Assembly (NCBI RefSeq): GCF_036370855.1
Contig: NC_088128.1
Location: 292,899 to 356,898, forward strand
Length of the DNA: 64,000 nucleotides
DNA from: Dromaius novaehollandiae
Taxonomy: Eukaryota
Direction: 5' to 3'
The notes beneath the pieces are model-generated. The model was given only the letters and a program-made list of their open reading frames with translations. It did not search any database and was not told where the DNA came from. The position numbers and the translations under genes were made by a program. Shown one piece after another: positions 1 through 64,000 of the stretch. Position 1 is the stretch's first letter, and each line of letters begins with the position of its first letter.

Positions 1-80
1 TCCCCAATGTCCCCCCAACGCCCTTGGTGTCCCCAAGCCCCACCATCTCCCCGGTGTCCCCAATGTCCCCCCCGCGGTAC
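1..80. repeat. Short-period C-rich array (gtcccc / aatgtcccc motifs) in the SRCAP intron
   Basis: Repeated gtcccc and caatgtcccc motifs run directly up to the exon at 81. Confidence 0.5.
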
Positions 81-250
81 CGGTTGACTTTCATCTTGAC
101 GGGCTTGGGCCGGGGCGGGGGGTCGGGGGCGGCGGCCACGTCCTCGAGGAGGCGGCGGGTGACGCGCCAGCGGGGCAGGAAGGTGTCGGCGGCGTAGCGC
201 GACGCCCGCCCCTCCAGCCCCACCAGGTCGAAGAGCCCCATGTCCACCTG
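81..250 (-). CDS. SRCAP: SRCAP coding exon (C-terminal end of the SNF2 helicase region, leading into the linker)
   Basis: The minus-strand translation is QVDMGLFDLVGLEGRASRYAADTFLPRWRVTRRLLEDVAAAPDPPPRPKPVKMKVN(R). It matches human SRCAP QRIDMGRFDLIGLEGRVSRYEADTFLPRHRLSRRVLLEVATAPDPPPRPKPVKMKVNR. Acceptor is ccccgcag at 251-253 and donor is CG|gtaccg at 80-79. The gene continues beyond the window start. Confidence 0.85.
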
Positions 251-1400
251 CTGCGGGGACAGGGACACCGCTGTCACCGCCACCGCCACCGCCACCGCCG
301 CACCCCAGAACCGCCGCCGTGGGGACGCGGGAGGCCCCCGAGGGACGAGGTGGCAGCTGCGCCCGTCACGTGGGGCGCCGCGGTGGTGGCCACGGGGACG
401 TGAGGTGTCACCTACGGGCCCATGTGTCACCTACGGCCCCAGAACTGCCACCATGGGGACAGAGAGCTCGACATGGGAAGAAGGTGGCACCTATGTCCCG
501 AAAATTGCCACCGTGGGGAGGTGGGACCCCATCAAGGGACGAGGTGGCACCTGCGCCCGTCACGTGGGGCGCCGCGGTGGTGGCCACGGGGACGTGAGGT
601 GTCACCTACGGCCCCATGTGTCACCTAAGACCCCGTGTGTCACCTATGTCCCCATGTGTCACCTACAGCCCCAGAACTGCCACCACGGGGACAGACAGCT
701 CTGCCCGGGATGGAGGTGGCACCTATGTCCCCAAAATTGCCACCATGGGGACACGGGAGGCCCCTGAGGGACGAGGTGGCACCTGCGCCCGTCACGTGGG
801 GCGCCGCGGTGGTGGCCACGGGGACGTGAGGTGTCACCTACGGCCCCATGTGTCACCTACGGCCCCGTGTGTCACCTATGTCCCCATGTGTCACCTACAG
901 CCCCAGAACTGCCACCACGGGGACAGACAGCTCTGCCCGGGATGGAGGTGGCACCTATGTCCCCAAAATTGCCGCCATGGGGACACGGGAGGCCCCTGAG
1001 GGACGAGGTGGCAGCTGCGCCCGTCACGTGGGGCGCCGCGGAGGTGGCCACGGGGACGTGAGGTGTCACCTACGGCCCCAGAACTGCCACCATGGGGACA
1101 GAGAGCTCAACGTGGCAAGAAGGTGGCACCTATGTCCCCAAAATTGCCACCATGGGGACGCGGGAGGCCACCGAGGGACGAGGTGGCACCTGAGCCCGTC
1201 ACGTGGGGCACCGCGGTGGTGGCCACGGGGACGTGAGGTGTCACCTATGGCCCCATGTGTCACCTACGGCCCCGTGTGTCACCTACGGCCCCAGAACTGC
1301 CACCGCGGGGACAGAGAGCTCTGCCCGGCATGGAGGTGGCACCTACGTCCCCAAAACTGCCACCGTGGGGGACACAGGGACGGCCGGGGCCGAGCACGTG
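251..1400. repeat. Tandem array with a unit of about 175-235 bp in an SRCAP intron
   Basis: The motif ccgtcacgtggggcgccgcggtggtggccacggggacgtgaggtgtcacctacgg recurs at about 363, 557, 790, 1022 and 1197. Stop-free ORFs on both strands here are artefacts. Confidence 0.8.
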
Positions 1401-2273
1401 GTGCTCTGATCAGTGCGGCTGACACTCCCCGTCACCCTCCCCGCGTTGTCACCGCATTGTCACCACGCCGGTAGCCTGTGTCCCCTCCGTGTCCCCAAGA
1501 CCCTCCCCACGGGGTCCAGAGGACCCGGATGAGGCTGAGGACGCAGCGCCCCGCCAGGTCCCGACCATGTGACCCGCACTCCCTGTCACCCTCCCCATGT
1601 TGTCACTGCGTTGTCACCGCGCCGGTAGCCTGTATCCCCTCCTGTCACCCCCAGCGTCCCCGTGGGGGCCGCAGGGACGGCCGGGACCGAGGACACGGCG
1701 CCCCGCCAGGTCCCAGCCACGCGGCCGGCGCTCCCCATCACCCTCCCTGTGTTGTCACTGCGTTGTCACCGCGTTGTCACCGCGCCGGTAGCCTGTATCC
1801 CCTCCTGTCACCCCCAGCGTCCCCGTGGGGGCCGCAGGGACGGCCGGGACCGAGGACACGGCGCCCCGCCAGGTCCCAGCCATGCGGCCAGCGCTCCCCA
1901 TCACCCTCCCTGTGTTGTCACTGTGTTGTCACCGCGTTGTCACCGCGCCGGTAGCCTGTATCCCCTCCTGTCACCCCCAGCGTCCCCGTGGGGGCCGCAG
2001 GGACGGCCGGGACCGAGGACACGGCGCCCCGCCAGGTCCCAGCCATGCGGCCAGCGCTCCCCATCACCCTCCCTGTGTTGTCACTGTGTTGTCACCGCGT
2101 TGTCACCGCGCCGGTAGCCTGTGTCCCCTCCTGTCACCCCCAGCGTCCCCGTGGGGGCCGCAGCGACGGCCGGGACCGAGGACACGGCGCCCCGCCAGGT
2201 CCCAGCCACGCGGCCGGCGCTCCCCGCCCCCCTCCCCGCCGTGTCCCCCCCCGTCCCCGGGGCGCGGCGTCAC
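1400..2273. repeat. Tandem array with a 163-bp unit, about 5 copies, in an SRCAP intron
   Basis: ccggtagcctgt recurs at 1467, 1623, 1786, 1949 and 2112, giving an exact 163-bp period. Confidence 0.85.
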
Positions 2274-2460
2274 CTTGAAGGGGTCGGGGTCGAGGGCGCG
2301 CAGCACGAGGGAGGCGGTGACGAAGCAGATGCCCTCGGTGATGAAGGGCGAGTGGATGGGCCGGGGGTCGAAGAGGTTGGGGTGGTTGCACACCTTGCGC
2401 AGCTGCATCAGCACGTTGATGACGCTCATGAAGTGGCCGGTGGCCAGGGTGGCCTTGGTG
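2274..2460 (-). CDS. SRCAP: SRCAP coding exon (helicase C-terminal lobe)
   Basis: Translation is (S)TKATLATGHFMSVINVLMQLRKVCNHPNLFDPRPIHSPFITEGICFVTASLVLRALDPDPFK. It matches human TTTKETLATGHFMSVINILMQLRKVCNHPNLFDPRPVTSPFITPGICFSTASLVLRATDVHPLQ. Acceptor is ccccgcag and donor is AAG|gtgacg. Phase is consistent with both neighbours. Confidence 0.9.
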
Positions 2461-2537
2461 CTGCGGGGGAGGGCGGAGGGCTGAGGCGGGGCCGGCGGGG
2501 GGCCGGCGGGGGGCCCCGGCGTCCCCGGCCCGCTCAC

Positions 2538-2674
2538 CTGGCCTGGCCCATGAAGTCGTCGTAGAGGTAGCGCTGCCGCTTGGACAGGCGGCACTTGATG
2601 ACGTGCTCGTACTTCTTGGGCATCTGCTTCTCCACGTCCACCTTCACCCGCCGCAGCAGGAAGGGCCGCAGCAC
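2538..2674 (-). CDS. SRCAP: SRCAP coding exon (helicase C-terminal lobe)
   Basis: Translation is [45 protein letters not shown]. It matches human [44 protein letters not shown]. Acceptor is ccgcag and donor is AG|gtgagcg. Confidence 0.9.
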
Positions 2675-2689
2675 CTGCGGGGGGGGGCG

Positions 2690-3780
2690 GGGGGGGCGTG
2701 TGTGGGGCGCGGTGGGCGGTGGGGGGGGCGTGGGGGGCGTGGGGGGGGTGCGGGGGCACCCCCAAGCCGGGGGGACCCCAGGGAGCTGCACCCTGATACG
2801 AGGAGGACCCCAAGGAGCGACACCATGACGTCGCGATGGCCCCCGGGAGCTACACCGTGACGTCACGGTGACCCCAGCGAGCTACACCCTGACATCACTG
2901 TGACCCCCGGGAGCTACACCCTGATATGAGGGGGACCCCAAGGAGTGACACCGTGACGTCGCGGTGACCCCAAGGAGCTACACCCTGATATGAAGGTGAC
3001 CCCAGCGAGCTACACCGTGACATCATGGTGACCCCAGTGAGCTACACCCTGACATCACTGTGACCCCCGGGAGCTACACCCTGATATAAGCGTGACCCCA
3101 AGGAACTACACCGTGACATCATGGTGACTCGCAGAAGCTACACCGTGACATCACAATGACCCCAGGGAGCTGTGCCCCAGGGCTGGGGGGACCCCAGGGA
3201 GCTACACCCTGATATGAGAATGACCCCAGCGAGCTACACCCTGACATCACTGTAACCCCCAGGAGCTACACCCTGATATGAGCGTGACCCCCAAAGAACT
3301 ACACCGTGACATCATGGTGACCCCCAGGAGCTACACCCTGATATAAGGATGATTCCAGAGAGCTACACCCTGACATGAGCATGACCCCCAGGAGCTACAC
3401 CCCTATATGAGGGGGACTCCAAGGAGCTACACCCCAATACCACTGTGACGCCCGGGATACACCCTGAGACACCTGAGCTACACCCTGACATCACGGTGAC
3501 CCCAGGGATATCTGGGTGACCCCAGTGTCACCCAGAGCAAGGGAGACCCCAAGGAGCTACACCCTGATATGAGGTTGACCCCAGGGAGCTACACCCTGAC
3601 ATTACAGTGACCCCAAGGAGCTACACCCCGATATCACGGTGACCCCAGGGAGCTACACCCCAGAGCTTGGATGACCCCAGGGAACTACACTCTGATATCA
3701 CACTGACGCCAAGGAGCTACACCCCAACATCATGGTGACCCCAGGGAGCTACACCCTGACATCACAGTGACCCCAGGGAG
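2690..3780. repeat. Minisatellite with a unit of about 33 bp (gaccccagggagctacaccctgacatcacggt) in an SRCAP intron
   Basis: Dozens of degenerate copies of gagctacaccctga(t/c)at are visible. Confidence 0.8.
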
Positions 3781-3825
3781 CTACACCCCGATTTCGAGGC
3801 ACCCGGGGTGGAGGGAACAACGCAC

Positions 3826-4018
3826 CTTGTGGAGCCGCTTGACGAGGCTCTCGTTGTACTCCTGGCTACCCTCGATCATGCCGGTGAGGGGGTTGGAGAA
3901 CCACTCCTTGAACTCGCGGTGCGACTGGAAGACGTGGGGCATCAGGAAGTGCATGAGCGACCACAGCTCCATGAGGCTGTTCTGCAGCGGCGTCCCCGTC
4001 AGCAACAGGCGCCGCTGG
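3826..4018 (-). CDS. SRCAP: SRCAP coding exon (SNF2 N-lobe, motif II-III region)
   Basis: Translation is (S)QRRLLLTGTPLQNSLMELWSLMHFLMPHVFQSHREFKEWFSNPLTGMIEGSQEYNESLVKRLHK. Apart from one residue it is identical to human SRCAP. Acceptor is cacccgcag and donor is AAG|gtgcg. Confidence 0.9.
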
Positions 4019-4102
4019 CTGCGGGTGACAAGCGAGGCGGGGGTGAGGCCTCCATGGGTGGTTCCCGAGCACCCAGGGGTGCCGCCCCGCCGCCCCGGGG
4101 AC

Positions 4103-4272
4103 CTGTTGAAGTTGAGCAGCGACTGCCACCGCTGCGACTTGAAGTTCTTGATGTTCTGGGCCTCGTCGAGGATGAGGTACTTCCAGTTCTTGCGGCGGAA
4201 GGCCTGGTGGTCCTGCAGCACCAGCTTGTAGGAGGTGATGCACACGTGGAAGGCGTTGGGCTTGGTCCAGCC
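4103..4272 (-). CDS. SRCAP: SRCAP coding exon (SNF2 N-lobe, DEAQ box)
   Basis: Translation is GWTKPNAFHVCITSYKLVLQDHQAFRRKNWKYLILDEAQNIKNFKSQRWQSLLNFN(S). It contains the DEAQ (DEAH-like) motif. Acceptor is cccccgcag and donor is AG|gtcccc. Confidence 0.9.
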
Positions 4273-4350
4273 CTGCGGGGGGGGGGGGGCGCGGGTGAGC
4301 GGGGGGCACCCATGGGTGGCCCCCCCACCCCGCCCCCGGGCGCCGCTGAC

Positions 4351-4487
4351 CTGCCGCTTGAGCTTGCGCTCCTTCTGGGCCCCGTAGTAGGTGAGGATCT
4401 TGAAGCTGGGGCACCAGCGCTTGAGCTCCATCTCCCAGTTGAGCATGACGCTGGTGGGCACGATGATGAGGTGGGGGCCCCAGCTGC
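4351..4487 (-). CDS. SRCAP: SRCAP coding exon (SNF2 N-lobe)
   Basis: Translation is (G)SWGPHLIIVPTSVMLNWEMELKRWCPSFKILTYYGAQKERKLKRQ. It matches human NWGPHLIIVPTSVMLNWEMELKRWCPSFKILTYYGAQKERKLKRQ. Acceptor is ccccgcag and donor is CAG|gtcagcgg. Confidence 0.9.
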
Positions 4488-4499
4488 CTGCGGGGGGGC

Positions 4500-6300
4500 G
4501 GCGGGCGTCAGCGCCGGCACCCAGGGGACCTCGGGGCACCCATAGGAGCTTGGGGCACCCTCGGGAGCCCCCCGGGGTGAAACGCGGGAGCGGGCGCGGG
4601 GAGAACGGGCTCAGGAGGACGTTGGATGGACGTGGGATGACCCAGAGGTGCCCGGACGTCTCCCAGCAAGACCCCGAGCACCCACCGAGGCACCCAGAAG
4701 ACACGGGAAGCCCCAGAAGCACCTTGGGTGGCTCCCAACAAGGCCCTGGGCACCCACCGAGGCACCTGGAGGCACCCAGGAAGCCCCAGAAGCACCCAGA
4801 CACCTCCCACCGAGACCCCGAGCACCCACCAGACCCAAGAAGGCCTCTGAGACACCCTAGAAGACTCAGGAGCTCCCACCAAGACCCCGAGCACCCACCG
4901 AGGCACCTGGAGACACCTTAGAAGCCCCAGAAGCACCCAGATACCTCCAGCCAAGACCCTGAGCACCCACCGAGGCACCTGGAGACCCAGAAGACCTCTG
5001 AAACACCCTAGAAGACCCAAAAGCACCCAGACATCTTCCACCAAGACCTTGAGCGCCCACCGAGGCACCCAGCAGACCCAGGAAGCCCTAGAAGCACCCA
5101 GGAAGCCCCAGAAGCACCCAGATATCTTCCACCAAGACCCCGAGCACCCACCGAGGCACCCAGCAGACCCAGAAGACCTCTGAAACACCCTAGAAGCCCC
5201 AGAAGCACCCAGACACCTCCCTCAAGACCTTAAGCACCCACCGAGGCACCTGGAGACACCCAGGAAGCCCCAGGAGGACCCAAACATCTCCCACCAAGAC
5301 CCTGAGCACCCACCGAGGCACCTGGAGACACCCAGGAAGCCCTAGAAGCACCCAGACACCTCCCACCAAGACCCCAAGCACCCACCGAGGCACCCAGCAG
5401 ACCCAGGAAGCCCTAGAAGCACCCAGGAAGCCCCAGAAGCACCCAGATATCTTCCACCAAGACCTTGAGCACCCACCGAGGCACCCAGAAGACCCAAAGG
5501 ACCTCTGAGACACCCTAGAAGACCCCGAAGCACCCAAACACCCCCCACCAAGACCTTGAGCACCCACTGGGGCACCTGGAGAGACTCAGGAAGTCCCAGA
5601 AGCACCCAGACACCTCCCACCAAGACCCTGAGCACCCACCAGACCTAAGAAGGTCTCTGAGACACCCTAGAAGCCCCAAAAGCACCCAGATATCTTCCAC
5701 CAAGACCCTGAGCACCCACCGAGGCACCCAACAGCCCCAGGACACCCTAGAAGCACCCAGGAAGCCCCAGAAGCACCCAGACACCTCTGCCAAGACCTTG
5801 AGCACCCACCGAGGCACCCAGCAGACCCAGAAGACCTCTGAAACGCCCTGAAAGACCCAGGAGCACCCAGCTGCCTCCCACCAAGGCCCTGAGCACCCAT
5901 CAAGGCACCCAACAGACCCAGCAAGCCCCAGAAGCACCCAGACACCTCCCTCAAGACCTTGAGCACCCACCGAGGCACCTAGAGACACCCAGGAAGCCCT
6001 AGAAGCACCCAGACACCTCCCACCAAGGCCCTGAGCACCCGTCAAGGCACCCAGCAGACCCAAGGCGGCCTCTGAGACACCCTAAAAGATCCCGAAGCAC
6101 CCAGATATCTCCTGCCAAGACCTTGAGCACCCACCGAGGCACCTGGAGACCCTCAGGAAGCCCCAGAAGCACCCAGACACCTCCCACCGAGACCCTGAGC
6201 ACCACCAAGGCACCCAGCAGCCCCAGGACGCCCTAGAAGCACCCAGGAAGCCCCAGAAGGACCCAAACGTCTCCCACCGAGACCCCGAGCACCCCCGGAG
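4500..6300. repeat. Minisatellite (gagcacccaccgaggcacc(tgg/cag)agac...aagccccagaagcacccagacacctcccaccaagaccc), sub-unit about 70-90 bp
   Basis: The array fills the intron between SRCAP exons 4487 and 6330. It is C-rich on the plus strand. Confidence 0.8.
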
Positions 6301-6329
6301 GCGCCCAGCAGCCCCGGGGCGCCCCTCAC

Positions 6330-6507
6330 CCTTCTCGCAGGCCAGGTGGGCCAGCAGGGAGATGGTCTGGATGGTCTTGCCCAGCCCCATCTCGTCGGCC
6401 AGGATGCCGTTGAGCTTCTTCTCGTACATGGTGACCAGCCAGTCGAGGCCGATGTGCTGGTACTCGCGCAGGGTGCCCCGCAGCAGGTGGGGGATGGGCG
6501 TCTTCAC
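6330..6507 (-). CDS. SRCAP: SRCAP coding exon (start of the helicase ATP-binding domain, Walker A)
   Basis: Translation is [59 protein letters not shown](G). It matches human [60 protein letters not shown] and carries the GLGKT P-loop. Acceptor is cccgtag and donor is G|gtgagg. A 76-nt intron follows on the upstream side. Confidence 0.9.
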
Positions 6508-6583
6508 CTACGGGTGCCCGCGGGTGTCAGCGGCGAGGTGGGGGGGCCGGGGGGGGGGGGTTTTGGGGGACGCCGGGGCCCAC

Positions 6584-6936
6584 CTGGGTGGTGGCCAGGG
6601 TGTAGCCCTTGGGCTGGAGGCTCTCGGCGGCGGCGGCGATGTCGGTGATCTCGGCCTTGGGCCCCGGGGTGGGGGTGGGGGTCAGGGTGGGGGTCGGGGC
6701 GGGGGCGGGGGCGGGGGGCGGGGCGCCCTCGTCGCCCTGCAGCAGGTAGGCCACGCCGCAGTCCTCCCCGCGGTCCTCCCGGGCGCCGGGGGGGGCCGCC
6801 GCCTCCCCCTCGCTCTCCTCGGCCTCCTCGTCTTCCTCCTCCTCCTCCTCCTCCTCCTCTTCGTCGTCCTCTTCGTCGTCCTCTTCGTCCTCCTCCTCCT
6901 CCTCCTCCTCCTCCTCGCTCTCGGCCGCCGGCGAGT
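6584..6936 (-). CDS. SRCAP: SRCAP acidic-linker exon with a coding (GAG/GAC)n microsatellite
   Basis: Translation is (D)SPAAESEEEEEEEEEDEEDDEEDDEEEEEEEEEEDEEAEESEGEAAAPPGAREDRGEDCGVAYLLQGDEGAPPPAPAPAPTPTLTPTPTPGPKAEITDIAAAAESLQPKGYTLATTQ. Its 3' part matches human EITDIAAAAESLQPKGYTLATTQ. Acceptor is ccccgcag and donor is CAG|gtgggcc. Confidence 0.85.
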
Positions 6937-6949
6937 CTGCGGGGCCGCG

Positions 6950-7910
6950 GGGAGGGGGGGGGACGTGAGCCCTCAGGGTGGCCCCGGCACCCGTGGGGGG
7001 GGGGGTCTGGCACCCAAGGGTGACGCCAGCGGGTGGCCATGACGCCTGGAGGTGGCTCCAGCACCCAAGGGTGACGCCAGGACCAGGGGGTGACCGTGAC
7101 ACCTGGGGGTGGCTCTGGCACCCAGGGGTGACACCAGGACCAGGGGGTGACCGTGACACCTGGGGGTGGCTCTGGCACCCAGGGGTGGCCCCAACCCCTG
7201 CAGGTGGTCCCAGCACCCTTGGGTGGCCCCAACCCCCTATGGGTGACCCCAACTCCCGTGGGTGACCCCAGCACCCTTGGGTGGCCCCAACTCCCTATGG
7301 GTTGCCCCAACTCCCTATGGGTGGCCCCACTTCCCCACTGGTGGCCCCAGCACCCATGGGTGGTCCCAGCAGCCTCGGGTTGCCCCAATCCCCTTTGGTG
7401 GCCCCAGCACCCATGGGTGGCCCCAACTCCCTATGACTGGCCCCAGCACCCTCAGATGGCCCCAGCACCCTTGGGTGGCCCTAGCACCCATGGGTGGCCC
7501 CAGCACCCTTGGGTGGCCCCAGCACTCTATGGGTGGCCCCAACTCCCCACTGGTGGCCCCAGTACCCTCAGATGGCCCCAGCACTCTATGGGTGGCCCTA
7601 GCACCCATGGGTGGCCCCAGCACTCTATGGGTGGCCCCAACCCCCATGGGTGGTCCCAGCACCCTCAGGTGGCCCCAGCACCCATGAGTGGTCCTAGCAC
7701 CCAGGGATGGCCCCAATCCCTATGGATTGCCCCAGCACCCTTGGGTGCTCCTAGCCCCCTTTGGTGGCCCCAGCACCCATGGGTGGCCCTGACTCCCTGT
7801 GGGTGACCCCAACACCCTATGGGTGGCCCCAACCCCCACAGATAGTCCCAGCACCCTATGGGCGTCCCCGGCACCCGGGGGTGGCCCCAGCACCCGTGGG
7901 CGTCCCCGCC
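6950..7910. repeat. Minisatellite with a unit of about 36-39 bp (ggtggccccagcacccatgggtggccccaactccctat)
   Basis: Many near-identical copies are present. They produce long artefactual ORFs on both strands. Confidence 0.85.
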
Positions 7911-7924
7911 CCCCGCGGCGGTAC

Positions 7925-8098
7925 CGGAGCGGGTGCTGCTGGCGTCCTCGGGGGAGGCGGAGCCAGAGCCGGGGGAGGCGGAGCCGGAGGCGGGGGCGGA
8001 GCCGGGGGCGGAGCCGGGCTCGGAGGGGGCCCCGGAGCTGGCGGAGTCGCCCAAGGCGCCGGCGTAGCGACGCAGCAGCTCCTCCATCGGCAGCGCCC
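7925..8098 (-). CDS. SRCAP: SRCAP coding exon (Ser/Gly/Pro-rich linker)
   Basis: Translation is (G)ALPMEELLRRYAGALGDSASSGAPSEPGSAPGSAPASGSASPGSGSASPEDASSTRS(G). Human has GELSMEELLQQYAGAYAPGSGSSEDEDE. Acceptor is acccgcag and donor is G|gtaccg. Phase is consistent with both neighbours. Confidence 0.8.
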
Positions 8099-8104
8099 CT
8101 GCGG

Positions 8105-10109: not shown

Positions 10110-10119
10110 CTGTAGGGGA

Positions 10120-54060: not shown

Positions 54061-54069
54061 CGCGGCTCA

Positions 54070-55230
<1,161 letters not shown>

Positions 55231-55238
55231 TGACCGAC

Positions 55239-55399
55239 CTGCTGGCAGATGCTGGCGTAGCGGGCGAGGACGTTGGCGTTCTCCAGGATGGCCAGGCGCG
55301 ACGGCGTGTGCTCCGAGATCTTGAGGACGCAGCGCCACTTGGCGAAGTCGGCCCCGTCCTTCTTGTACTGGGCGCAGCGCTCCATCAGCCCGTCCAGGC
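55239..55399 (-). CDS. ALDOA: ALDOA coding exon
   Basis: Translation is (G)[53 protein letters not shown]. Human has [54 protein letters not shown]. Acceptor is cccag and donor is CAG|gtcggtca. Confidence 0.9.
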
Positions 55400-56385
55400 C
55401 TGGGCGCGCGGGGACACCGTGGGGACACGGCGGGGGGACACCGGGGCGGGGGACACGGCGGGGAACGTGCGGGGAGAGCCGCGGGGACGGCGGTGGGATC
55501 GCGTTGGGGATGGCGGTGGGGACGCAGGTGGCATTAGGGACATGGGGACGGCCTTGGGGACACAGGGAAGGTCTTGGGGACATGGAGGTGGCACAAGGGA
55601 CATGGGGACAGCCTTGGGGACACGGATAGCGGCGGGGAACGTGCGGGGAGAGCCACAGGGACGGTGGTGGGATCGCGGGGACGCAGGTGGCATTAGGGAC
55701 ATGGGGACAGCCTTGGGGACGCAGGGATGGCCTTGGGGACGTGCAGACAGCCTTGGGGACATGCAGGTAGCACATGGGACACAGTGACAGCCTTGGGGAC
55801 ACGGGTGGCCTCGGGGACACGGGGACGGCCTCAGGGACATAGAGATGGCATTGAAGACACAGGAATCATGTTGGTGACATGCAAGTACCATGTGGGACAC
55901 GGGGACAGCCTTGGGGACAGCTTTGGGGACACCGGCGGGGAATGTGCAGGCAGAGCCACGGAAATGGCATTGGGAACAGCCTTGGGGACATCGGGATGGC
56001 CTTGGGGACACGAGGACAGCCTTGGGGACGTGGGGACAGCGCTGGGGACGCGGAGGAGGCACGGGGGACGTGGGGACGGCCTCGGGGACACGGGGACGGC
56101 CGCGGGGACACACACGCACACGACTAGGGACACGGGGAGGCCGACGAGGACACAGAGACAACGTTGGCCACCGCTCGGGGACACAAGGACCCCCTCGGGG
56201 ACCTGGGGACCCCCTTGGGGACACAAAGACCCCCTTGGGGACACGGGGAAGCCCTTGGGGACCTCCTGAGGACCTGGGGACCCCTCGGGGACACTTGGTC
56301 ACCCTCAGGGAGACCCTTGTGGACCCACCAAGGACCCGGGGACACCCTTGGGGACCTGGGGACACCTTTGGGGACGGTCACGCAC
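55400..56385. repeat. G-rich array with a short unit (ggggacacggggacggccttggggaca)
   Basis: ggggac(a/g) and ccttgggga are repeated many times. Confidence 0.8.
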
Positions 56386-56440
56386 CTTGGGTGGTGGTCT
56401 CGCCATTGGTGCCAGCGAGGGGGACGACCCCTTTGTCCAC
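56386..56440 (-). CDS. ALDOA: ALDOA coding exon (55 nt)
   Basis: Translation is VDKGVVPLAGTNGETTTQ(G). It is identical to human ALDOA. Acceptor is cctag and donor is G|gtgcgtgac. Confidence 0.9.
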
Positions 56441-56444
56441 CTAG

Positions 56445-58535
56445 GAGGGGACATGGGGACACGGTCACCGGGAGCCCCAATGTCCCCCCCAACGTCCCTC
56501 GGACCCGCAGCCACCGCTGTCCCCAGGTCCCCTCTGTCCCCACGTCCCCTCTGTGCCCCATCTCCGTGTCCCCCTGATGTCCCCAAGTCTCCCTGAGCTT
56601 GTTCCACCCCAAATTCCCATGTCCCTTCATGTCCCCCAATGTCCCCTCAACGTCTCCACGTTCCCCAACGTCCCTGTGGCTCTTCCATGTCCCCCAATGT
56701 CCCCTCAACATCTCCATGTCCCCCAGTGTCCCTGCAGCCCTTCCACGTGCCCCAATGTCCCCTCAACGTCTCCATGTCCCCCAGTGTCCCCTCAATGTCT
56801 CCATGTCCCCCAATGTCCCTGCGGCCCTTCCACGTGCCCCAACGTCCCCTCAATGTCTCCATGTCCCCCAGTGTCCCCTCAACGTCTCTACGTCCCACAT
56901 CCCTGTGTCCCCTCAACATCTCCACGTCCTCCAACGTCCCTGTGGCCCTTCCATGTCCCCCAATGTCCCCTCAACGTCTCCATACCCAACGTCCCTGTGT
57001 CTTCTCAACTTCTCCATGTCCCCCAATGTCCCTGTGGTCCTTCCACGTCCCCCAATGTCCCCTCAATGTCTCCACGTCCCCCAACATCCCTGAGTCTTCT
57101 CAACTTCTCCATGTCCCCCAATGTCCCTGTGGCCCTTCCACCTCTCCACGTCCCCCAACGTCCCCTCAATGTCTCCACGTCCACCATCCCTGTGTTCCCT
57201 CAACATCTCCACGTCCCTGTGGCCCTTCCATGTCCCCCAGCGTCCCCTCAACATCTCCACGTCCCACAACGTCCCCTCAACGTCTCCACAACATCTCCAC
57301 GTCTCCTAACATCCCTGCGTGCTTTCTATGTCCCCTCAAGCTCCCTTCAATGTCTCCACGTCCCCCAACGCCCCCTCAACGTCTCCACGTCCCCCAACGT
57401 CCCCTCAACGTCTCCACGTCCCACACCCCTGCGTCCCCTCAACGTCTCCACGTCCCCCAACGTCCCCTCAACGTCTCCACGTCCCCCAACGTCCCCCCTC
57501 AACGTCTCCACGTCCCCTCAATGTCTCCACGTCCCCCAACGTCCCCTCAACCTCTCCACGTCCCCCAACGTCCCCTCAACGTCTCCACGTCCCACAACGT
57601 CCCCTCAACGTCTCCACGTCCCACATCCCTGCGTCCCCTCAACGTCTCCACGTCCCCCAACGTCCCTTCAACGTCTCCACGTCCCCTCAATGTCTCCACG
57701 TCCCCCAACGTCCCCTCAACGTCTCCACGTCCCACATCCCTGCGTCCCCTCAACATCTCCGCGTCCCCCAACGTCCTTGTGACCCTTCCACGTCCCCCAA
57801 CGTCCCCTCAACGTCTCCACGTCCCCCAACGTCCCCTCAACGTCTTCATGTCCCCCAACGTCCCCTCAACGTCTCCACGTCCCCCAATGCCCCCTCAACG
57901 TCTCCACGTCCCACATCCCTGTGTCCCCTCAACATCTCCGCGTCCCCCAATGTCCCTGTGACCCTTCCACGTCCCCCAACGTCCCCTCAACCTCTCCACG
58001 TCCCCCAATGCCCCCTCAACCTCTCCACGTCCCACATCCCTGCGTCCCCTCAACATCTCCGCGTCCCCCAATGTCCCTGTGACCCTTCCACGTCCCCCAA
58101 CGTCCCCTCAACGTCTCCACGTCCCCCAGTGTCCCCTCAACATCTCCACGTCCCACATCCCTGCGTCCCCTCAACATCTCTGCGTCCCCCAACGTCCTTG
58201 TGACCCTTCCACGTCCCCCAACGTCCCCTCAACGTCTCCACGCCCCCCAATGTCCCCCGTCTTCACGTCCCCCAACGTCCCCTCAACGTCTCCACGTCCC
58301 CCAACGTCTCAACGTCTCCACATCCCCTCAACGTCCCCTCAACGTCCCCTCAACGTCTCCACGTCCCCTCAACGTCTCCACGTCCCCCAATGTCCCCTCA
58401 ACCTCTCCACGTCCTCCAACGTCCCCTCAACCTCTCCGCGTCCCACATCCCTGCGTCCCCTCAACATCTCCGCGTCCCCCAACGTCCTTGTGACCCTTCC
58501 GCGTCCCCCAACGTCCCCCCCCGCGTCCCCGTGCC
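56445..58535. repeat. Minisatellite with a unit of about 30 bp (cccctcaacgtctccacgtcccccaacgt)
   Basis: More than 60 copies are present. The array is C-rich on the plus strand. Confidence 0.85.
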
Positions 58536-58538
58536 CAC

Positions 58539-58750
58539 CTTGATGCCGACGAGGCCGCCCTTGGCGCGGATGACGGCGGGGAAGGGGCGCCCGTCGTCCG
58601 CCTTCTGGTAGAGGGTCTCGTGGAAGAGGATGACGCCGCCGATGCAGGGGTCCACGCGCTGGTCGGCCGTGAAGAGCAGCTGCCGGTACCAGCGCCGGTT
58701 CTCCTCCGTGTTCTCCGCCCCCACCGAGCTCAGCCGCTTGGCGATGCTGC
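58539..58750 (-). CDS. ALDOA: ALDOA coding exon
   Basis: Translation is (G)[70 protein letters not shown]. Human ALDOA has [70 protein letters not shown]. This segment rules out ALDOC. Acceptor is cccggcgcag and donor is AAG|gtgggcac. Confidence 0.9.
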
Positions 58751-58754
58751 CTGC

Positions 58755-60200
58755 GCCGGGGACGCCCGCGTCACCCCCCCCGGGGGCCACCGCGGGGTCC
58801 CCGCGGCCACCCGGGGCCACCCAGGACCCCCCAGTGTCATCTGCCGTCGCTGCCATCGCCCATGGCCACCTTGGTGGAACCCGTGCTCTTGTTGCGCCTA
58901 CTTCTGCCAAGGTTTGCAGGGCTCCCGGTGGCCCCTGGGGCCACCCAGTGTCACCTCATGGCACCTGGGGCCACCCAAGACCCTCTAGTGTCACCTCATG
59001 GCACCTGGGGCCACCCAAGACCCTCCGGTGGCACCCGGTGGCACCTGCCATCGCCCATGGCCACCTTGGTGGCACCCATCCTCTTGTTGCACCTACCGCT
59101 GCCAAGGCTCCCAGTGCTCCCAGTGACACCTGGGGCCACCTTGGGTCACCCAGTGTCACCTCATGGCACCTGGGGCCACCCAGGACCCCCCAATGTCACC
59201 TGATGGCAGCCGGGGCCACCCAGGACCCTCCGGTGGCACCCGGTGGCACCTGCCATCGCCCATGGCCACCTTGGTGGCACCCATCCTCTTGTTGCACCTA
59301 CCGCTGCCAAGGCTCCCAGTGCTCCCAGTGACACCTGGGGCCACCCAGGACCCTCCAGTGTCACCCAATGGCACCTGGGGTCACCCAGGACCCCCCAGGG
59401 TCACCTGATGGCACCTGCCATCACCCATGGCCACCTTGGTGGCACCCGTCCTCCTGCTGCACCTACTGCTGCCAGGGTTTGCAGGGCTCCCAGTGCTCCC
59501 AGTAGCACCTGGGGCCACCCAGTGGTGTCCCAGTACCAACTGGGGTCACCCCGTGGCACCTGGGGTCACCCCATGTCTCCTTGGTGCCACCCTGAGGTCA
59601 CCTGATGTCACCCGGTGCCACCCAATAGCACTTGGGGCCACGCAGTGCCCTCCCAGTGTCACCCAGTGTCCTCCTAGTCCCCTCCCAGTGCCCTCCCAGT
59701 GTCACCCAGTGTCCTCCCAGTAGCTTCAAGTGCCAGCTGCTGCCCCCCAGTGCTCTCCCAGTGCCTCCCAGTCCCCCCCAGTGCCTCCCAATTCCCTCCC
59801 AGTGCTCCCAGTCCCTTCCCAGTGCTTCCCAGTTCCCTCTGATCATCTCCCAGTGCCTTCCCAGTGCTTCCTGCTACCTCCCAGTGTCACTCAGTGTTCT
59901 CCAAGTCACTCCCAATCCCCTCCCAGTGCTCCCAGTGCCTTCCAGTCCTCTCCTGGTGCCACCCAGTGCTCCCCAGTCCCCTCCAAGTGCCCCCCAATCC
60001 CTTCCCAGTGCCTCCCACTACTCCCCAGTTCCCCCTAGTCCCCTCCCAGTGCTCCCAGTGCCCTCCAATCCCTTCCCAGTCCCTTCCCAGTGCCTCCCAC
60101 TACACCCCAATGCCACCCAATTCCCCCCAGTGCCCTCCGGGCACCCCCCAGCCCCTTCCAGTGCCCCCCAAACCCCTCCCAGTGCCTCCCAGTGCTCCCA
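58755..60200. repeat. Arrays based on ggggccacccaggaccc / cacctgggg, about 60 bp, then on ccctcccagtgcc, about 12 bp
   Basis: The ccagtgcctccc 12-mer continues into the next array. Confidence 0.8.
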
Positions 60201-61460
60201 GTGCCTCACCAGTGGACTCATCAGCGGCGAGGATGCCCTTGCCGGGGGCGACGATGCGCAGGGCGACGGCGGCGAGCTCCCCCAGTGCCTCCCAGTGCCT
60301 CCCAGTGCCCTCTAAACCCCTCCCAGTGCCCTCCAAACCCCTCCCAGTCCCCTCCCAGTGCCCTCCCAGTGCTCCCAGTGCCTCACCAGTGGACTCATCG
60401 GCGGCGAGGATGCCCTTGCCGGGGGCGACGATGCGCAGGGCGATGTCGGCGAGCTCCCCCAGTGCCTCCCAGTGCCTCCCAGTGCCCCCCAAACCCCTCC
60501 CAGTGCCCCCCAAACCCCTCCCAGTCCCCTCCCAGTGCCTCCCAGTGCTCCCAGTGCCTCACCAGTGGACTCATCGGCGGCGAGGATGCCCTTGCCGGGG
60601 GCGACGATGCGCAGGGCGATGTCGGCGAGCTCCCCCAGTGCCTCCCAGTGCCCTCTAAACCCCTCCCAGTGCCCCCCAAACCCCTCCCAGTCCCCTCCCA
60701 GTGCCTCCCAGTGCTCCCAGTGCCTCACCAGTGGACTCATCGGCGGCGAGGATGCCCTTGCCGGGGGCGACGATGCGCAGGGCGATGTCGGCGAGCTCCC
60801 CCAGTGCCTCCCAGTGCCTCCCAATGCCCCCCAAACCCCTCCCAGTGCCCCCCAAACCCCTCCCAGTGCCTCCCAGTGCTCCCAGTGCCTCACCAGTGGA
60901 CTCATCGGCGGCGAGGATGCCCTTGCCGGGGGCGACGATGCGCAGGGCGATGTCGGCGAGCTCCCCCAGTGCCTCCCAGTGCCTCCCAGTGCCCTCTAAA
61001 CCCCTCCCAGTGCCCCCCAAACCCCTCCCAGTGCCCTCCAAACCCCTCCCAGTGCCCCCCAAACCCCTCCCAGTCCCCTCCCAGTGCCTCCCAGTGCTCC
61101 CAGTGCCTCACCAGTGGACTCATCGGCGGCGAGGATGCCCTTGCCGGGGGCGACGATGCGCAGGGCGATGTCAGCGAGCTTCCCCAGTGCCTCCCAGTGC
61201 CTCCCAGTGCCCCCCAAACCCCTCCCAGTGCCCCCAAACCCCTCCCAGTGCCCTCCAAACCCCTCCCAGTGCCCTCCCAGTGCTCCCAGTGCCTCACCAG
61301 TGGACTCATCGGCGGCGAGGATGCCCTTGCCGGGGGCGACGATGCGCAGGGCGATGTCGGCGAGCTCCCCCAGTGCCTCCCAGTGCCTCCCAATGCCCCC
61401 CAAACCCCTCCCAGTGCCCCCCAAACCCCTCCCAGTGCCTCCCAGTGCTCCCAGTGCCTC
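60200..61460. repeat. ALDOA: Tandem array of about 165-217 bp holding seven truncated copies of the 3' end of the ALDOA first coding exon, each with an intact 5' splice site
   Basis: Copies lie at about 60204, 60381, 60558, 60723, 60888, 61105 and 61292. In each copy the minus strand reads [24 protein letters not shown]|gtgaggc, with minor variants in copies 1 and 6. The ATG and acceptor are absent, and ccagtgcctccc 12-mers flank each copy. Confidence 0.85.
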
Positions 61461-61462
61461 AC

Positions 61463-61582
61463 CAGTGGACTCATCGGCGGCGAGGATGCCCTTGCCGGGG
61501 GCGACGATGCGCAGGGCGATGTCGGCGAGCTCCTTCTTCTGCTCGGGGCTCAGCGCCGGGTACTGGTGCGGCATGGCGGCTC
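61463..61582 (-). CDS. ALDOA: ALDOA first coding exon (ATG at 61574..61572)
   Basis: Translation is [37 protein letters not shown](G). Human ALDOA has [38 protein letters not shown]. Acceptor is cccccgcag at 61583 and donor is G|gtgaggc at 61462. Confidence 0.9.
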
Positions 61583-61584: not shown

Positions 61585-62340
61585 GCGGGGGCCCAGGCGT
61601 CCGGGGAATCGCCCTCGTCCCCCCCCCCCCGAACCAACCCCGTGGGCCCAGGCGTCCGGGCAACACCTCCCCCCCCCCCTTTCTGGGGCCCAGGCGTCCG
61701 GGAAGAGGGGGTAAAGGGGCCCAGGTGTCCGGGGGGGGCGAAAGGGGCCCAGGCGTCCGGGAAGGGGGGGTAAATGGGCCCAGGCGTCCGGGGAAGGGAG
61801 GGGGGAGATGGGCCCAGGCGTCCGGGGAAGGGAGGGGGGAGATGGGCCCAGGCGTCCGGGCAAGGGAGGGGGGAGATGGGCCCAGGCGTCCGGGCAAGGG
61901 AGGGGAGACAGGATGGGCCCAGGCGTCCGGGGAAGGGAGGGGGGACAGGATGGGCCCAGGCGTCCGGGGTGGGGAAGGGGGGGGGGGCGGGGAAGGGCCC
62001 AGGCGTCCGGGTTGGGGAAGTCACCCTGGCCGGGGAAGGGGCCCAGGCGTCCGGGCCGGGCTCGGGGTGCGGTCAAGGGCGGAGAGCGAGGGCGGGACCC
62101 AGGCGTCCGGGTGGGGGGGGGGGGGGCGAGAAAGGGCCCAGGCGTCCGGGGAGGGACCCAGGCGTCCGGGTGGGGGGGGCAAGAAAGGGCCCAGGCGTCC
62201 GGGGAGGGACCCAGGCGTCCGGGTTGGGGGGGCGGGGGGGGAGGCGGAAGGGGCCCAGGCGTCCGGCAGGGAGCCCCAAGGGCGTCTCAAGGGCAGCGAG
62301 AAGGGCCCAGGCGTCCGGGCAGGGCTCCCTTCCCCCCCCT
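61585..62340. repeat. Array based on gggcccaggcgtccgg(g/a)gaagggagggggga, the reverse complement of the CCGGACGCCTGGGCCC family
   Basis: gggcccaggcgtccgg occurs about 20 times. It is the inverse-oriented copy of the arrays at 43425 and 47625. Confidence 0.85.
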
Positions 62341-63830
62341 CCCCCAATGGGGCGGAGCGGGACCCCCCCAAAACTGCCCCCCCCAACCCCAAAATCTCCC
62401 CCCCCGGCCCCAAATCTGCCCCCCCCGGCCCCCAAATCGGCCTTTTCAGCCCCAAATCTGGCCCCCGCCCTAAAATCTGCCTTTTTAGCCCCGAATCTGC
62501 CCCCAAGTCCTAAAATCCACCTTTTTAGCCCCAAATCTGCTCCTCTGGACCCCAAATGCACCTTTTCAGCCCCAAATCTGCCCCCAAATCCTAAAATCCA
62601 TCTTTTCAGCCCCAAATCTGCTTCTCTGGACCCCAAATCCACCTTTTTAGCCCCAAATCTGCCTCCAAATCCTAAAATCCACCTTTTTAGCCCCAAATCT
62701 GCTCCTCTGGACCCCAAATCCACCTTTTTAGCCCCAAATCTGCCCCCAGAATCCCGCATCTGTTCCCTCAGCCCCAAAATCTACCTTTTTAAGCCCAAAT
62801 CTGCCCCCAGAGTCCCAAATCCTCCTCCGCAGCCCTGAAATCTGCCTTTTTAGCCCCAAATCTGCCCCCAAAGTCCCCAATCCACCTCTTCAGCCCCAAA
62901 TCTGCCCCCCAGCCCCAAAATCTGCCTTTTTAGGCCCAAATCTGTGCCTGGAGTCCCCTATCTGCCCTCCCAGCCCTAAAATCTGCCTTTTTAGGCCCAA
63001 ATCTGGACTCCGCCCCAAAATCTGCCTTTTTAGCCCCAAACCTGCCCCCCAGCCCCAAAATCTGCCTTTTTCGCCCCAAATCTTCCCCCCAACCCCCAAA
63101 TCTACCTTTGCAGCCCCAAACCTGCCCCCCCGGCCCCAAAATCCGCCTTTTTCGCCCCAAATCTTCCCCCTAGCCCCAAAATCTACCTTTGCAGCCCCAA
63201 ACCTGCCCCCCAGCCCCAAAATCCGCCTTTTTCGCCCCAAATCTTCCCCCTAGCCCCCAAATCTACCTTTGCAGCCCCAAACCTGCCCCCCAGCCCCAAA
63301 ATCCACCTTTTTCGCCCCAAATCTGCCCCCTAGCCCCCAAATCTACCTTTGCAGCCCCAAACCTGCCCCCCCAGCCCCAAAATCCGCCTTTTTCGCCCCA
63401 AACCTGCCCCCCCAGCCCCCAAATCTACCTTTGCAGCCCCAAACCTGCCCCCCCAGCCCCAAAATCCGCCTTTTTCGCCCCAAACCTGCCCCCCCAGCCC
63501 TCAAATCTACCTTTGCAGCCCCAAACCTGCCCCCCCGGACCCAAAATCCGCCTTTTTCGCCCCAAATCTTCCCCCTAGGCCCAAATCTACCTTTGCAGAC
63601 CCAAACCTGCCCCCCCGGCCCCAAAATCCGCCTTTTTCGCCCCAAATCTTCCCCCTAGCCCCCAAATCTACCTTTGCAGCCCCAAACCTGCCCCCCCAGC
63701 CCCAAAATCCGCCTTTTTCGCCCCAAATCTTCCCTCTAGCCCCCAAATCTACCTTTGCAGCCCCAAACCTGCCCCCCCGGCCCCAAAATCCGCCTTTTTC
63801 GCCCCAAACCTGCCGCCCCCCCCGCGCCCC
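62340..63830. repeat. Array with a unit of about 80 bp (ccccaaatctgccttttagccccaaatctgcccccaaatcctaaaatccacctttttagcc)
   Basis: ccccaaa(a)tc(t/c)(g/a)cc is repeated many times. The array is C-rich on the plus strand. Confidence 0.85.
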
Positions 63831-63832
63831 AC

Positions 63833-63915
63833 CTGGTCTCGCGCCGGGGCTGCAGCGAGCGCGCGGGGCGGGGCGGGGGGGGGGGAGGCCGTGACGTCAG
63901 AGCGCGCGGGCGGAA
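63833..63915 (-). other. ALDOA: Putative ALDOA non-coding exon 1; the 5' end is uncertain
   Basis: A minus-strand donor GAGACCAG|gtggggcg lies at 63833/63832. It pairs with the acceptor at 61583 across an array-filled intron. Confidence 0.4.
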
Positions 63916-64000
63916 GCGGCGGGAGGGGGCGGGGGGGCGCTTAAAGGGGCCGCGGCGCCGAGCGCTGAGTCACCGGGCGGGGGGGGGGGATTTGGGGTGC
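63835..64000 (-). promoter_or_regulatory. ALDOA: Candidate ALDOA promoter region
   Basis: A CRE ccgtgacgtcag lies at 63889-63900. GC boxes are present. A TTAAAG-type box sits inside gcttaaaggggccgcg at 63938-63953. An AP-1-like ctgagtcacc lies at 63965-63974. The window ends at 64000. Confidence 0.4.

Follow-up and report, generated by a model that had tools for sequence, protein, structure and literature searches.

The question raised by this locus is where the tandem arrays that fill the noncoding DNA around a set of housekeeping genes come from. The window, by which we mean the whole 64-kb stretch of emu (Dromaius novaehollandiae) DNA that was analyzed, carries three minus-strand genes, SRCAP, PPP4C, and ALDOA. 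An earlier note made from its letters had described introns and spacers each filled by an array of their own, and had favored independent local expansion in each intron over invasion by one satellite. Our analysis argues for local expansion: the window very probably belongs to a GC-rich small microchromosome of the emu, and its own noncoding DNA has the "sequence stuttering," or intronic minisatellites, of dot chromosomes, with arrays that are bounded by exons, persist in orthologous introns, and are re-homogenized there. This architecture is already known, and the window is a real and ordinary instance of it; our comparative and periodicity results are modest extensions.

Gene models were assembled junction by junction from GT-AG exons seeded in the open frames of nonrepeat segments. 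The tblastn seeds, human PPP4C, ALDOA, and SRCAP, served for seeding only, and the final models were verified against PDB sequences and by exact protein look-up. All 32 coding exons are intact, ordered, and GT-AG, with 29 introns between them. Tandem repeats were called with Tandem Repeats Finder (TRF) at a score of ≥50 (560 rows on the window, merged for coverage), with five dinucleotide-preserving shuffles as the control. TRF covered 80.8% of the 64 kb (65.7% at a score of ≥400) versus 0.1-0.35% of the shuffles, and a greedy non-redundant set held 73 arrays of ≥100 bp, with periods of 10-726 bp and 57-97% identity between neighboring copies. The introns, 41.4 kb in total, were 90% covered and the spacers 76-85%; each intron of ≥800 bp was 67-98% covered, and 6 of the 29 introns (76-146 bp) lacked any array with a period ≥9 and a score ≥100. 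Intron sizes are bimodal, either short and array-free or ≥800 bp and array-filled, and the claim that nearly every intron and spacer is filled by an array therefore holds for the long introns and fails for the six short ones. Unit lengths had been put at about 11 to about 240 bp, which is right at the lower end (10-11 bp) and too low at the upper, where higher-order periods reach 671 and 726 bp.

The arrays run close to the exons. Those of period ≥9 and score ≥100 lie ≤10 nt from the donor in 9 of 23 array-bearing introns and ≤13 nt from the acceptor in 6 of 23. The array of SRCAP intron 1, described previously as beginning at 18390, 27 nt from the acceptor at 18363, does face that acceptor; it starts at 18389, with 25 nt between them. 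A CTGAC branch-point-like motif lies at the extreme edge of this array, a separate small C-rich 19-bp array adjoins the SRCAP intron 2 acceptor, and the pyrimidine tract is poor at several acceptors (35-47% pyrimidine over the last 60 nt; e.g., 18364-18389, 16248-16347). As a candidate explanation for composition, shaping by splice sites was set aside: donor-proximal G-skew and acceptor-proximal C-skew are weak, each in 14 of 21 introns. Coding exons were 11% TRF-covered, or 1.5% under a stricter filter (period ≥9, score ≥100), and this coverage reflects acidic or proline/alanine low complexity. In SRCAP it includes a (GAG/GAC)n acidic tract at 6802-6916 and the GC-rich Pro/Ala/Arg exon at 12284-12389, which weakly resembles a promoter-proximal GC-rich tract at 30.3-30.5 kb. 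The exons had been called the only unique sequence of the window, which overstates the case: SRCAP coding tracts are flagged by TRF, 71 nt of ALDOA exon 1 form part of a repeat unit, and unique nonexonic blocks exist (e.g., 30.5-31.3 kb and 33.7-34.5 kb).

At 67% G+C, the window is much richer in C than in G on its plus strand, where the cumulative GC skew is -5.5, and the sense strand is accordingly G-rich. G-quadruplex (G4) motifs number 227 on the sense and 64 on the template strand, a 3.5-fold excess and ~1.9x the block-shuffle expectation; by class, the counts are 109 sense versus 33 template in introns and 0 versus 5 in coding exons. The hundreds of false open reading frames noted earlier are there as well (576 stop-free stretches of ≥60 amino acids, compared with 791 in shuffled sequence), and they are explained by the GC content of the window.

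Whether each array is private to its place was tested by all-versus-all BLAST of 28 noncoding compartments together with BLAST family clustering of the 73 arrays. Clustering gave 30 families, close to the count of about 35 in the earlier note, and 25 of the 30 are restricted to one compartment. The self-repeated share of each compartment was 77-100%, and 14 of 28 compartments were ≤2% similar to any other. One family that had been listed as an exception to privacy, ccagtgcctccc, occurs in ALDOA intron 1 only.

The origin of one array can be read directly. The terminal 71 nt of ALDOA exon 1 (61463-61533), which run exactly up to the donor, are found as seven further copies in intron 1 (blastn, 96-100% identity, 115-129 bits), spaced 165-216 bp apart, and the splice donor CTG/GTGAGG is intact in all seven. 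At its 5' junction each copy has GGAG in common with the background CACTGGGAGG repeat. Hron et al. (2026) define exon stuttering as copying of a lateral exon part together with its splice site into the neighboring intron, from a source that lies no more than about 1 base from the exon edge and above a threshold of 42.1 bits (PMC12954441); the ALDOA copies end at the donor and score well above that threshold. Such stuttering was seen in 1 of 29 introns. The exon-1 segment is single-copy in ostrich, rhea, and two ducks, indicating that the duplication is confined to the emu lineage, and the copies are the sole emu noncoding sequences that match the gecko and armadillo ALDOA loci, where the match falls on exon 1. 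The array that contains the copies demonstrably grew from the adjacent exon edge with its splice donor. Used as a donor, the first copy would insert a stop-free, in-frame 165 nt.

Orthologous loci were compared at ALDOA-PPP4C in ostrich (L001), Rhea pennata (L002), and two Anatidae assemblies (L003 and L004, the ducks), at PPP4C-SRCAP in kakapo (L005), and at SRCAP introns 2-3 in the Darwin's finch Camarhynchus parvulus (L006), with the ALDOA loci of gecko and armadillo as negative controls; a protein search for a crocodilian or turtle ALDOA turned up no representative. TRF coverage was 67-93% at the six bird loci and 0.2-0.3% at the gecko and armadillo loci. Between emu and ostrich, the intron-by-intron matrix of BLAST coverage has a clear diagonal, 78-100% in 12 of 14 compartments with off-diagonal values mostly 0 (ALDOA introns 1, 2, 3, 4, and 7: 100, 99, 98, 78, and 96%; PPP4C introns 3, 4, and 5: 97, 99, and 97%), and the emu-rhea matrix is similar. 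Against the ducks the diagonal is retained for ALDOA intron 1 (about 52%), ALDOA intron 6 (about 94%), and PPP4C intron 3 (about 99%). Intron-specific cores are recognizable in emu, ostrich, rhea, and both ducks: CACTGGGAGG in ALDOA intron 1, which resembles the ALDOA donor junction CCACTG/GTGAGG, CTAATTGCCCCCC in PPP4C intron 3, and GCTAAGCACACGCTAAG in PPP4C intron 5. The comparison of orthologous introns that the earlier note had suggested thus finds arrays at all six bird loci and shared families in ostrich, rhea, and partly the ducks, but arrays in kakapo and Camarhynchus that have essentially no sequence similarity to those of the emu, so that deep conservation of families is not universal. 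The Camarhynchus locus is 93% tandem repeat with A/T-rich units (e.g., AAATTTGGGTGAAATTTGGG) and a SRCAP intron 2 of 9.6 kb; it has 45% G+C, and the architecture therefore does not need extreme GC.

Intron lengths vary widely from one species to another. ALDOA intron 6 measures 1869 bp in emu (52202-54070), 2041 in rhea, 2893 and 2543 in ducks L003 and L004, and 90 in ostrich (L001 16693-16782), where it has no array; PPP4C intron 4 measures 800 bp in emu, 396 in ostrich, 102 in rhea, and 83 and 84 in ducks L003 and L004. ALDOA intron 3 is 986 bp in emu versus 91-92 bp in the ducks, ALDOA intron 7 is 1751 versus 3909 bp between the two Anatidae assemblies, and the 33-bp unit of one family in ALDOA intron 7 has 88 copies in emu and 67 in ostrich. 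A single lineage can thus lose, or fail to gain, an entire array. Within emu, long off-diagonal self-alignments are 76-80% identical (88% in ALDOA intron 4), compared with 65-72% when emu is aligned with ostrich or rhea over those introns, and between species shifted registers score almost equally (e.g., 1009, 998, 994, 994, and 985 bits). Copy-by-copy orthology of emu with ostrich or rhea was rejected, since many shifted registers are equal and identity is higher within the species. This pattern indicates concerted evolution confined to a single intron, an old family whose copies are re-homogenized. Copy number and higher-order structure are species-specific, and the seed family often is not, at least in slowly evolving lineages. 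Short units within emu are diverged (60-75%) and long higher-order units are much more alike (163 bp, 97%; 462 bp, 95%; 726 bp, 92%); the long units are a young overlay on old short ones.

Arrays that are unrelated in sequence nevertheless follow a common length quantum of ~10.3 bp (10.25-10.35 bp in six of seven birds including emu). The identity autocorrelation of the window forms a comb at lags 11, 21, 30, 40, 51, 61, 72, 82 ... 207, with a best period of 10.25 bp, and 17 of 28 compartments have an own best period of 9.8-10.8 bp, where 2.8 would be expected under uniform periods. A periodogram of the A/T indicator peaks at 10.34 bp (9.1x the median; control, 1.3x). The best period is 10.25 bp in ostrich and rhea, 10.35 in the ducks, 10.3 in kakapo, and 11.05 in Camarhynchus, and a peak of this kind was not found at the gecko and armadillo ALDOA loci. 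We interpret 10.25-10.35 bp as close to one helical turn of DNA.

These features can be set against what has been published for small bird chromosomes. Sequence stuttering was described on chicken dot chromosomes by Hron et al. (Genome Biol Evol 2026, PMC12954441; preprint September 2025) as locally expanded intron motifs of tens to hundreds of bp, whose clustering between exons indicated a local origin and which extend to spacers. Median intron TRF coverage there reaches up to 93%, and 86% of introns are length-variable among chickens, intraspecific intron-length variation being one of the three defining features (PMC12954441). In the emu window, introns are correspondingly repetitive (90% by TRF, 77-100% by self-BLAST, units of 10-726 bp at 57-97% identity), and array clusters are strictly local for 25 of 30 families, with five shared, around coding regions whose products equal RefSeq proteins. 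Further likenesses are the arrays in spacers, the copying of an exon edge, and the GC-rich, G4-prone DNA. As to location, a dot chromosome is a candidate: the window has 67% GC, the emu record is 3.3 Mb long, and ALDOA is a gene of chicken dot chromosome 38 (PMC12954441). Two differences are that the published account concerns chicken, and other birds in passing, whereas the emu is a palaeognath, and that here a family is kept in the orthologous intron of emu, ostrich, rhea, and partly the ducks, with concerted evolution. The conclusion reached for chicken, independent local expansion rather than invasion by one satellite, is the one that we also reach for this window (PMC12954441), in agreement with the earlier note.

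The telomere-to-telomere zebra finch genome (10.1101/2025.10.14.682431) and the companion preprint of Smeds et al. (10.1101/2025.10.17.683159) report that >70% of dot-chromosome introns are tandem repeats, with units in multiples of 10-11 bp and co-localized A-phased repeats and G4s. The latter, whose genome set includes emu, places intronic G4s on the coding strand and G4s of coding sequence on the template strand, and its authors raise roles in splicing and recombination (10.1101/2025.10.17.683159). The window has the same G4 strand pattern, and its 10.25-bp period agrees with the multiples of 10-11 bp. The finch works differ in giving genome-wide statistics without per-intron privacy or orthology, in one passage that names "a specific minisatellite sequence" where the emu window has ~30 families, and in noting multiples of 10-11 bp without further analysis; the precise period (10.25-10.35 bp in six birds and 11.05 bp in Camarhynchus) is absent there.

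Mammalian GC-rich hypervariable minisatellites are isolated loci, often subtelomeric, with imperfect, strand-asymmetric units of 10-100 bp, and unequal exchange, gene conversion, and slippage have been proposed as their means of turnover. The window has such GC-rich 10-100-bp units and strand asymmetry, but its arrays are contiguous, take up ~90% of the intron space of consecutive housekeeping genes, and are bounded by exons. Satellite DNA evolves in concert, forms higher-order repeats, and has copies that are more alike within than between species; the emu arrays are like it in that old short units of 60-75% identity are overlain by younger long units of 90-97%, and unlike it in that homogenization acts within one intron of a few kb and not at chromosome scale or between chromosomes. 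The gigantic introns of Drosophila Y-linked fertility genes, reported by Fingerhut and Yamashita (2022; cited in PMC12954441), are likewise transcribed introns with tandem arrays, where polymerase and spliceosome face a repetitive pre-mRNA. They differ in consisting of megabase simple satellites that are heterochromatic and nonrecombining, whereas the emu arrays span 0.1-6.8 kb, belong to many families, and lie in euchromatic GC-rich genes.

The arrays could have grown by local duplication and deletion through replication slippage or template switching, to which unequal exchange or gene conversion would add turnover in GC-rich DNA that recombines often and readily adopts non-B structures. Chromosomes of the dot type are known for high recombination. 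Purifying selection on exons and splice signals would be the sole barrier and would set the array borders, continuing turnover would homogenize each array without moving it out of its intron, and the ~10.3-bp quantized unit lengths could reflect a structural bias in the creation or retention of units. Because arrays vanish from single introns in single lineages without harm to essential genes, there is no need to invoke a function, and instability most likely produced the arrays as a by-product, not as a device with a function of its own.

Several points weigh against this explanation. Privacy was assessed within the 64-kb window and the orthologous loci only. Five of the 30 families occur in more than one compartment, where the earlier note had allowed for two exceptions while otherwise being right that adjacent arrays are unrelated and that most are confined between exons. 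The five are the CCGGACGCCTGGGCCC family (in PPP4C intron 4, between PPP4C and ALDOA, and in inverted orientation upstream of ALDOA), a C-rich family of the CCCCAAACTCGCCCCCAG type (five places, SRCAP intron 2 and several spacers), the AATTGCCCCCC family (in PPP4C intron 3 and in the spacer that lies upstream of this gene), a family in ALDOA introns 3 and 6, and a GC-rich low-complexity tract found in coding and promoter sequence. Short G-run cores are also common to arrays that are unrelated in other respects, with GGGGACA/TGTCCCC present in 12 of 28 compartments versus 0 in shuffles and CTGGGGG in 16 of 28 versus 4.2, which means that the arrays are not fully independent; GGGGACGTG, present in 7 of 28 compartments, is likewise far above block-shuffle controls. 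A single ancestral core motif was considered and rejected, as only these short G-runs (GGGGACA, CTGGGGG) recur, too little to merge families. The assignment of the window to an emu dot chromosome rests on synteny with chicken chromosome 38 and the 3.3-Mb record and not on a karyotype, the array lengths are those of the assembly, and the mechanistic steps (slippage, unequal exchange, a G4 or hairpin role) are drawn from anatomy and literature.

More tentatively, and with less than even confidence, we suggest that the arrays could be ancient, positionally orthologous components of their introns, dating back to at least the palaeognath ancestor and in some cases (ALDOA intron 1, PPP4C intron 3) to the common ancestor of living birds, and kept by concerted evolution under a common helical-turn length rule. 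Local expansion in each intron stands, but the picture of young, species-private events does not, because most families occur in the orthologous introns of ostrich and rhea (some also in ducks). Arrays of unrelated sequence also have the 10.25-bp quantum and short G-run cores in common. If the arrays are this old and follow a common length rule, a shared structural cause would act on all of them regardless of sequence, for example helical-phase-dependent duplication or nucleosome or bent-DNA constraints, and the published inference of independent expansion in each species would be revised.

It is rather unlikely, although compatible with sequence stuttering as the explanation, that the arrays are selected functional elements, such as splicing signals, pre-mRNA G-quadruplexes, nucleosome phasing or DNA bending through the 10.3-bp A/T periodicity, or recombination hotspots. 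Selection would account for conserved intron-specific motifs, and the cores CACTGGGAGG, CTAATTGCCCCCC, and GCTAAGCACACGCTAAG are conserved from emu to ducks; the common 10.25-10.35-bp comb in unrelated arrays of six of seven birds, the sense-strand excess of G4 motifs (3.5x, ~1.9x block-shuffle expectation), and the proposals on splicing and recombination (10.1101/2025.10.17.683159) point in the same direction, and arrays that adjoin splice sites must in some cases supply the branch point and pyrimidine tract. Set against this, arrays can vanish harmlessly (ALDOA intron 6, 1869 versus 90 bp; ALDOA intron 3, 986 versus 91-92; PPP4C intron 4, 800 versus 83-102 in rhea and ducks), those of kakapo and Camarhynchus are of unrelated sequence, the donor G-skew and acceptor C-skew are weak (14 of 21 introns each), and a cross-species identity of 65-72% fits, by our own estimate and not by computation, the neutral divergence of an old array.

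Invasion by a few genome-wide satellite or transposon-derived families that look distinct through degeneracy is very unlikely. It would explain why five families span compartments, especially CCGGACGCCTGGGCCC (three places, both orientations) and the C-rich CCCCAAACTCGCCCCCAG type (five places), and why G-run cores recur across arrays, but 25 of the 30 families of the window stay in one compartment of it, half of the compartments (14 of 28) are ≤2% similar to others, one family is visibly derived from the adjacent exon-intron junction, and cross-species matches fall on the orthologous intron and not locus-wide. The CCGGACGCCTGGGCCC family itself sits in three compartments that are identical for emu, ostrich, and rhea (it is not in ducks), favoring an old local duplication over ongoing invasion. 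A centromeric or heterochromatic satellite class, the analogy behind the CENP-A/H3K9me3 suggestion of the earlier note, does not fit either. Such satellites form long homogeneous arrays, from tens of kb to Mb, with one or few families in DNA poor in genes, whereas here the largest one-family block is 6.8 kb, and 30 families share 64 kb around three intact, active GC-rich housekeeping genes. An assembly artifact, in which low-complexity GC-rich long reads were mis-expanded, collapsed, or mis-joined, is very unlikely: HiFi coverage is known to drop out in such regions, which earlier assemblies lacked, and Hron et al. caution that some local variation may be technical (PMC12954441), but 32 of 32 coding exons are intact, ordered, and GT-AG with exact RefSeq emu protein matches, the same families stand in the same introns of independently assembled ostrich, rhea, and duck genomes, six other bird assemblies are 67-93% TRF at these loci, and chicken intron arrays were verified by raw nanopore reads (PMC12954441).

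The genes themselves are well defined (Table 1), and the earlier note was right to name SRCAP, to call the genes housekeeping, and to expect difficulty in assembly and annotation. We take the window to be syntenic with human 16p11.2. The SRCAP translation matches human SRCAP (6igm_H, E=0) and is 90-91% identical to bird SRCAP-like proteins; its exon at 12389-12284 was located solely by splice-phase logic. The spliced PPP4C product (307 amino acids) is identical to emu XP_064355586.1, whose accession is adjacent to that of ALDOA, and to ostrich and kiwi PPP4C, with the PP2A catalytic subunit as its nearest PDB relative (E=3e-145). The spliced ALDOA product (364 amino acids) is identical to emu XP_064355584.1 and matches aldolase A structures over its full length (E=3.5e-228). 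Upstream of the SRCAP start codon, two array-free segments are probably exons of the 5' untranslated region (UTR), and the unique block at 30523-31305 is probably the first exon, CpG island, and promoter, in which case the arrays at 25.9-30.0 kb would lie in a 5'UTR intron. Downstream of the PPP4C stop codon, the sole minus-strand AATAAA (35903-35898) lies within an A-rich tract, and for this reason the 1.07-kb array at 36082-37154 is probably located in the mature PPP4C 3'UTR and not in an intron or spacer; its 31-bp unit includes the palindrome GGGGACACGCGTGTCCCC. An Rfam scan of the unique segments at gathering thresholds gave zero matches, and hence neither an intronic snoRNA nor any other RNA of a known family. 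The spacer that separates the SRCAP promoter from the PPP4C poly(A) site holds an AT-richer nonrepetitive block of ~0.8 kb (33732-34520) without a gene or Rfam match.

Table 1. Genes, exons, arrays, and other features of the 64-kb emu window (window coordinates)
Feature	Position	Strand	Description
SRCAP, 5' half, 16 coding exons	81..25368	minus	Spliced GT-AG model; gene runs past window start
SRCAP exons 1-8	25368-25204 (ATG), 18363-18178, 16247-16107, 14211-14043, 12651-12476, 12389-12284, 10109-10020, 8098-7925	minus	
SRCAP exons 9-16	6936-6584, 6507-6330, 4487-4351, 4272-4103, 4018-3826, 2674-2538, 2460-2274, 250-81	minus	
Putative SRCAP 5'UTR exons, array-free	25430..25886 (about 25430-25598 and 25643-25886)	minus	83% nucleotide identity to kakapo upstream of SRCAP exon 1; in kakapo predicted protein P0009
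Unique GC-rich block	30523..31305	minus	Non-TRF; translated AAAAILP similar to start of kakapo P0009 model
PPP4C, 8 coding exons	37336..45657: 45657-45560, 45432-45381, 45234-45184, 44318-44217, 43416-43243, 42144-42018, 40220-40031, 37465-37336 (stop)	minus	
Putative PPP4C 3'UTR	35880..37335	minus	Array of 31-bp units 36082-37154 (~35 copies) and poly(A) signal AATAAA 35903-35898
ALDOA, 8 coding exons	49025..61574: 61574-61463, 58750-58539, 56440-56386, 55399-55239, 54414-54331, 54245-54071, 52201-52002, 49120-49025 (stop)	minus	Poly(A) signal AATAAA 48909-48904
ALDOA exon-1 copies	61298-61368, 61112-61180, 60894-60964, 60729-60799, 60563-60633, 60387-60457, 60210-60280	minus	
Short array-free introns	4273-4350, 4019-4102, 6508-6583, 12390-12475, 2461-2537, 45235-45380		
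SRCAP intron 15	405..2236		Two unrelated private arrays: 405-1293 (19-bp core, 175/232-bp units), 1598-2236 (163-bp unit, 97% identity)
SRCAP intron 13	2770..3788		32-bp unit, ~32 copies, private
SRCAP intron 10	4660..6324		72/91/325-bp units, 10-bp AGAAGCACCC core, private
SRCAP intron 8	6997..7907		19/39/57-bp units (GGGTGGCCCCAGCACCCAT); weak relation to introns 3 and 4
SRCAP intron 7	8126..9829		CACACGCCTCG core of 10-11 bp; higher-order 145/287-bp units; private
SRCAP intron 6	10399..12267		Units of 152-331 bp, GGTGACACC-type, private
SRCAP intron 4	12657..13955		CCCCAGCACCCATGGGTGCCCC units, 20/72/152 bp
SRCAP intron 3	14245..16102		20/41/123-bp units (GTAGCCAC...GGTGGTCACCC)
SRCAP intron 2	16252..18150		C-rich CCCCCAAACTCGCCCCCCAGC family, periods 20, 31, 52, 62, 333; also in spacers 25.9-27.7, 32.3-32.7, 45.8-47.4, 62.4-63.8 kb
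SRCAP intron 1 (6.8 kb, 95% array)	18389..25180		62-bp unit x 29.5, then 726-bp and 181-bp units; one private family; 25 nt short of exon-2 acceptor
Putative SRCAP 5'UTR intron	25907..30002		Units of 58-671 bp; shared C-rich family 25907-27711, private family 27797-30002
Spacer, SRCAP promoter to PPP4C 3' end	31306..35618		Arrays 31306-32222 (110 bp), 32341-32740, 33033-33731 (28 bp), 34615-35618 (82/228 bp); unique blocks between at 32.8-33.0, 33.7-34.5 kb
PPP4C intron 7	37605..39860		Two private families: 40/393-bp units, 69/321-bp units
PPP4C intron 6	40474..41861		199/462-bp units, private; counterpart in none of the other birds examined
PPP4C intron 5	42174..43234		258-bp unit, GCTAAGCACACGCTAAG core; core also in intron 5 of ostrich, rhea, ducks, weakly kakapo
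PPP4C intron 4	43457..44214		CCGGACGCCTGGGCCC family, 22/33/93 bp; starts 2 nt past donor; common to 47717-48733 and 61686-62324
PPP4C intron 3	44351..45170		CTAATTGCCCCCC units, 20/40/105 bp; core also in intron 3 of ostrich, rhea, both ducks
PPP4C-ALDOA spacer	45810..48733		AATTGCCCCCC and C-rich arrays 45810-47386; CCGGACGCCTGGGCCC family 47717-48733
ALDOA intron 7 (2.9 kb, 98% array)	49134..51950		33-bp unit x 88, private in window
ALDOA intron 6	52234..53847		CCCCATGGCCACGTCCCC family, 34/48/127/241 bp; in ducks, diverged in rhea
ALDOA intron 4	54466-55098		82-bp unit, 87%
ALDOA intron 3	55677-56109		Array
ALDOA intron 2	56631..58518		29-bp unit x 65, private within window
ALDOA intron 1 (2.7 kb, 98% array)	58808..61533		205-bp units 58808-59415; CACTGGGAGG family 59643-61533, from donor, including exon-derived copies
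Upstream of ALDOA	61686..63808		Inverted GGGCCCAGGCGTCCGG family 61686-62324; C-rich 80/162-bp arrays 62434-63808

The architecture seen here accounts for hundreds of bird genes, including ALDOA, that were long thought "missing"; such loci are hard to sequence, assemble, and annotate, and their local instability has been linked to the loss of dot-chromosome genes. To this the window adds a clean case from a palaeognath, its gene models fully resolved, and an emu-specific instance of exon stuttering, which gives ALDOA intron 1 seven additional intact 5' splice sites. A further addition is that unrelated arrays obey a common ~10.3-bp period, and our small comparative set suggests that array families can persist at one intron across the deepest splits among living birds despite re-homogenization.

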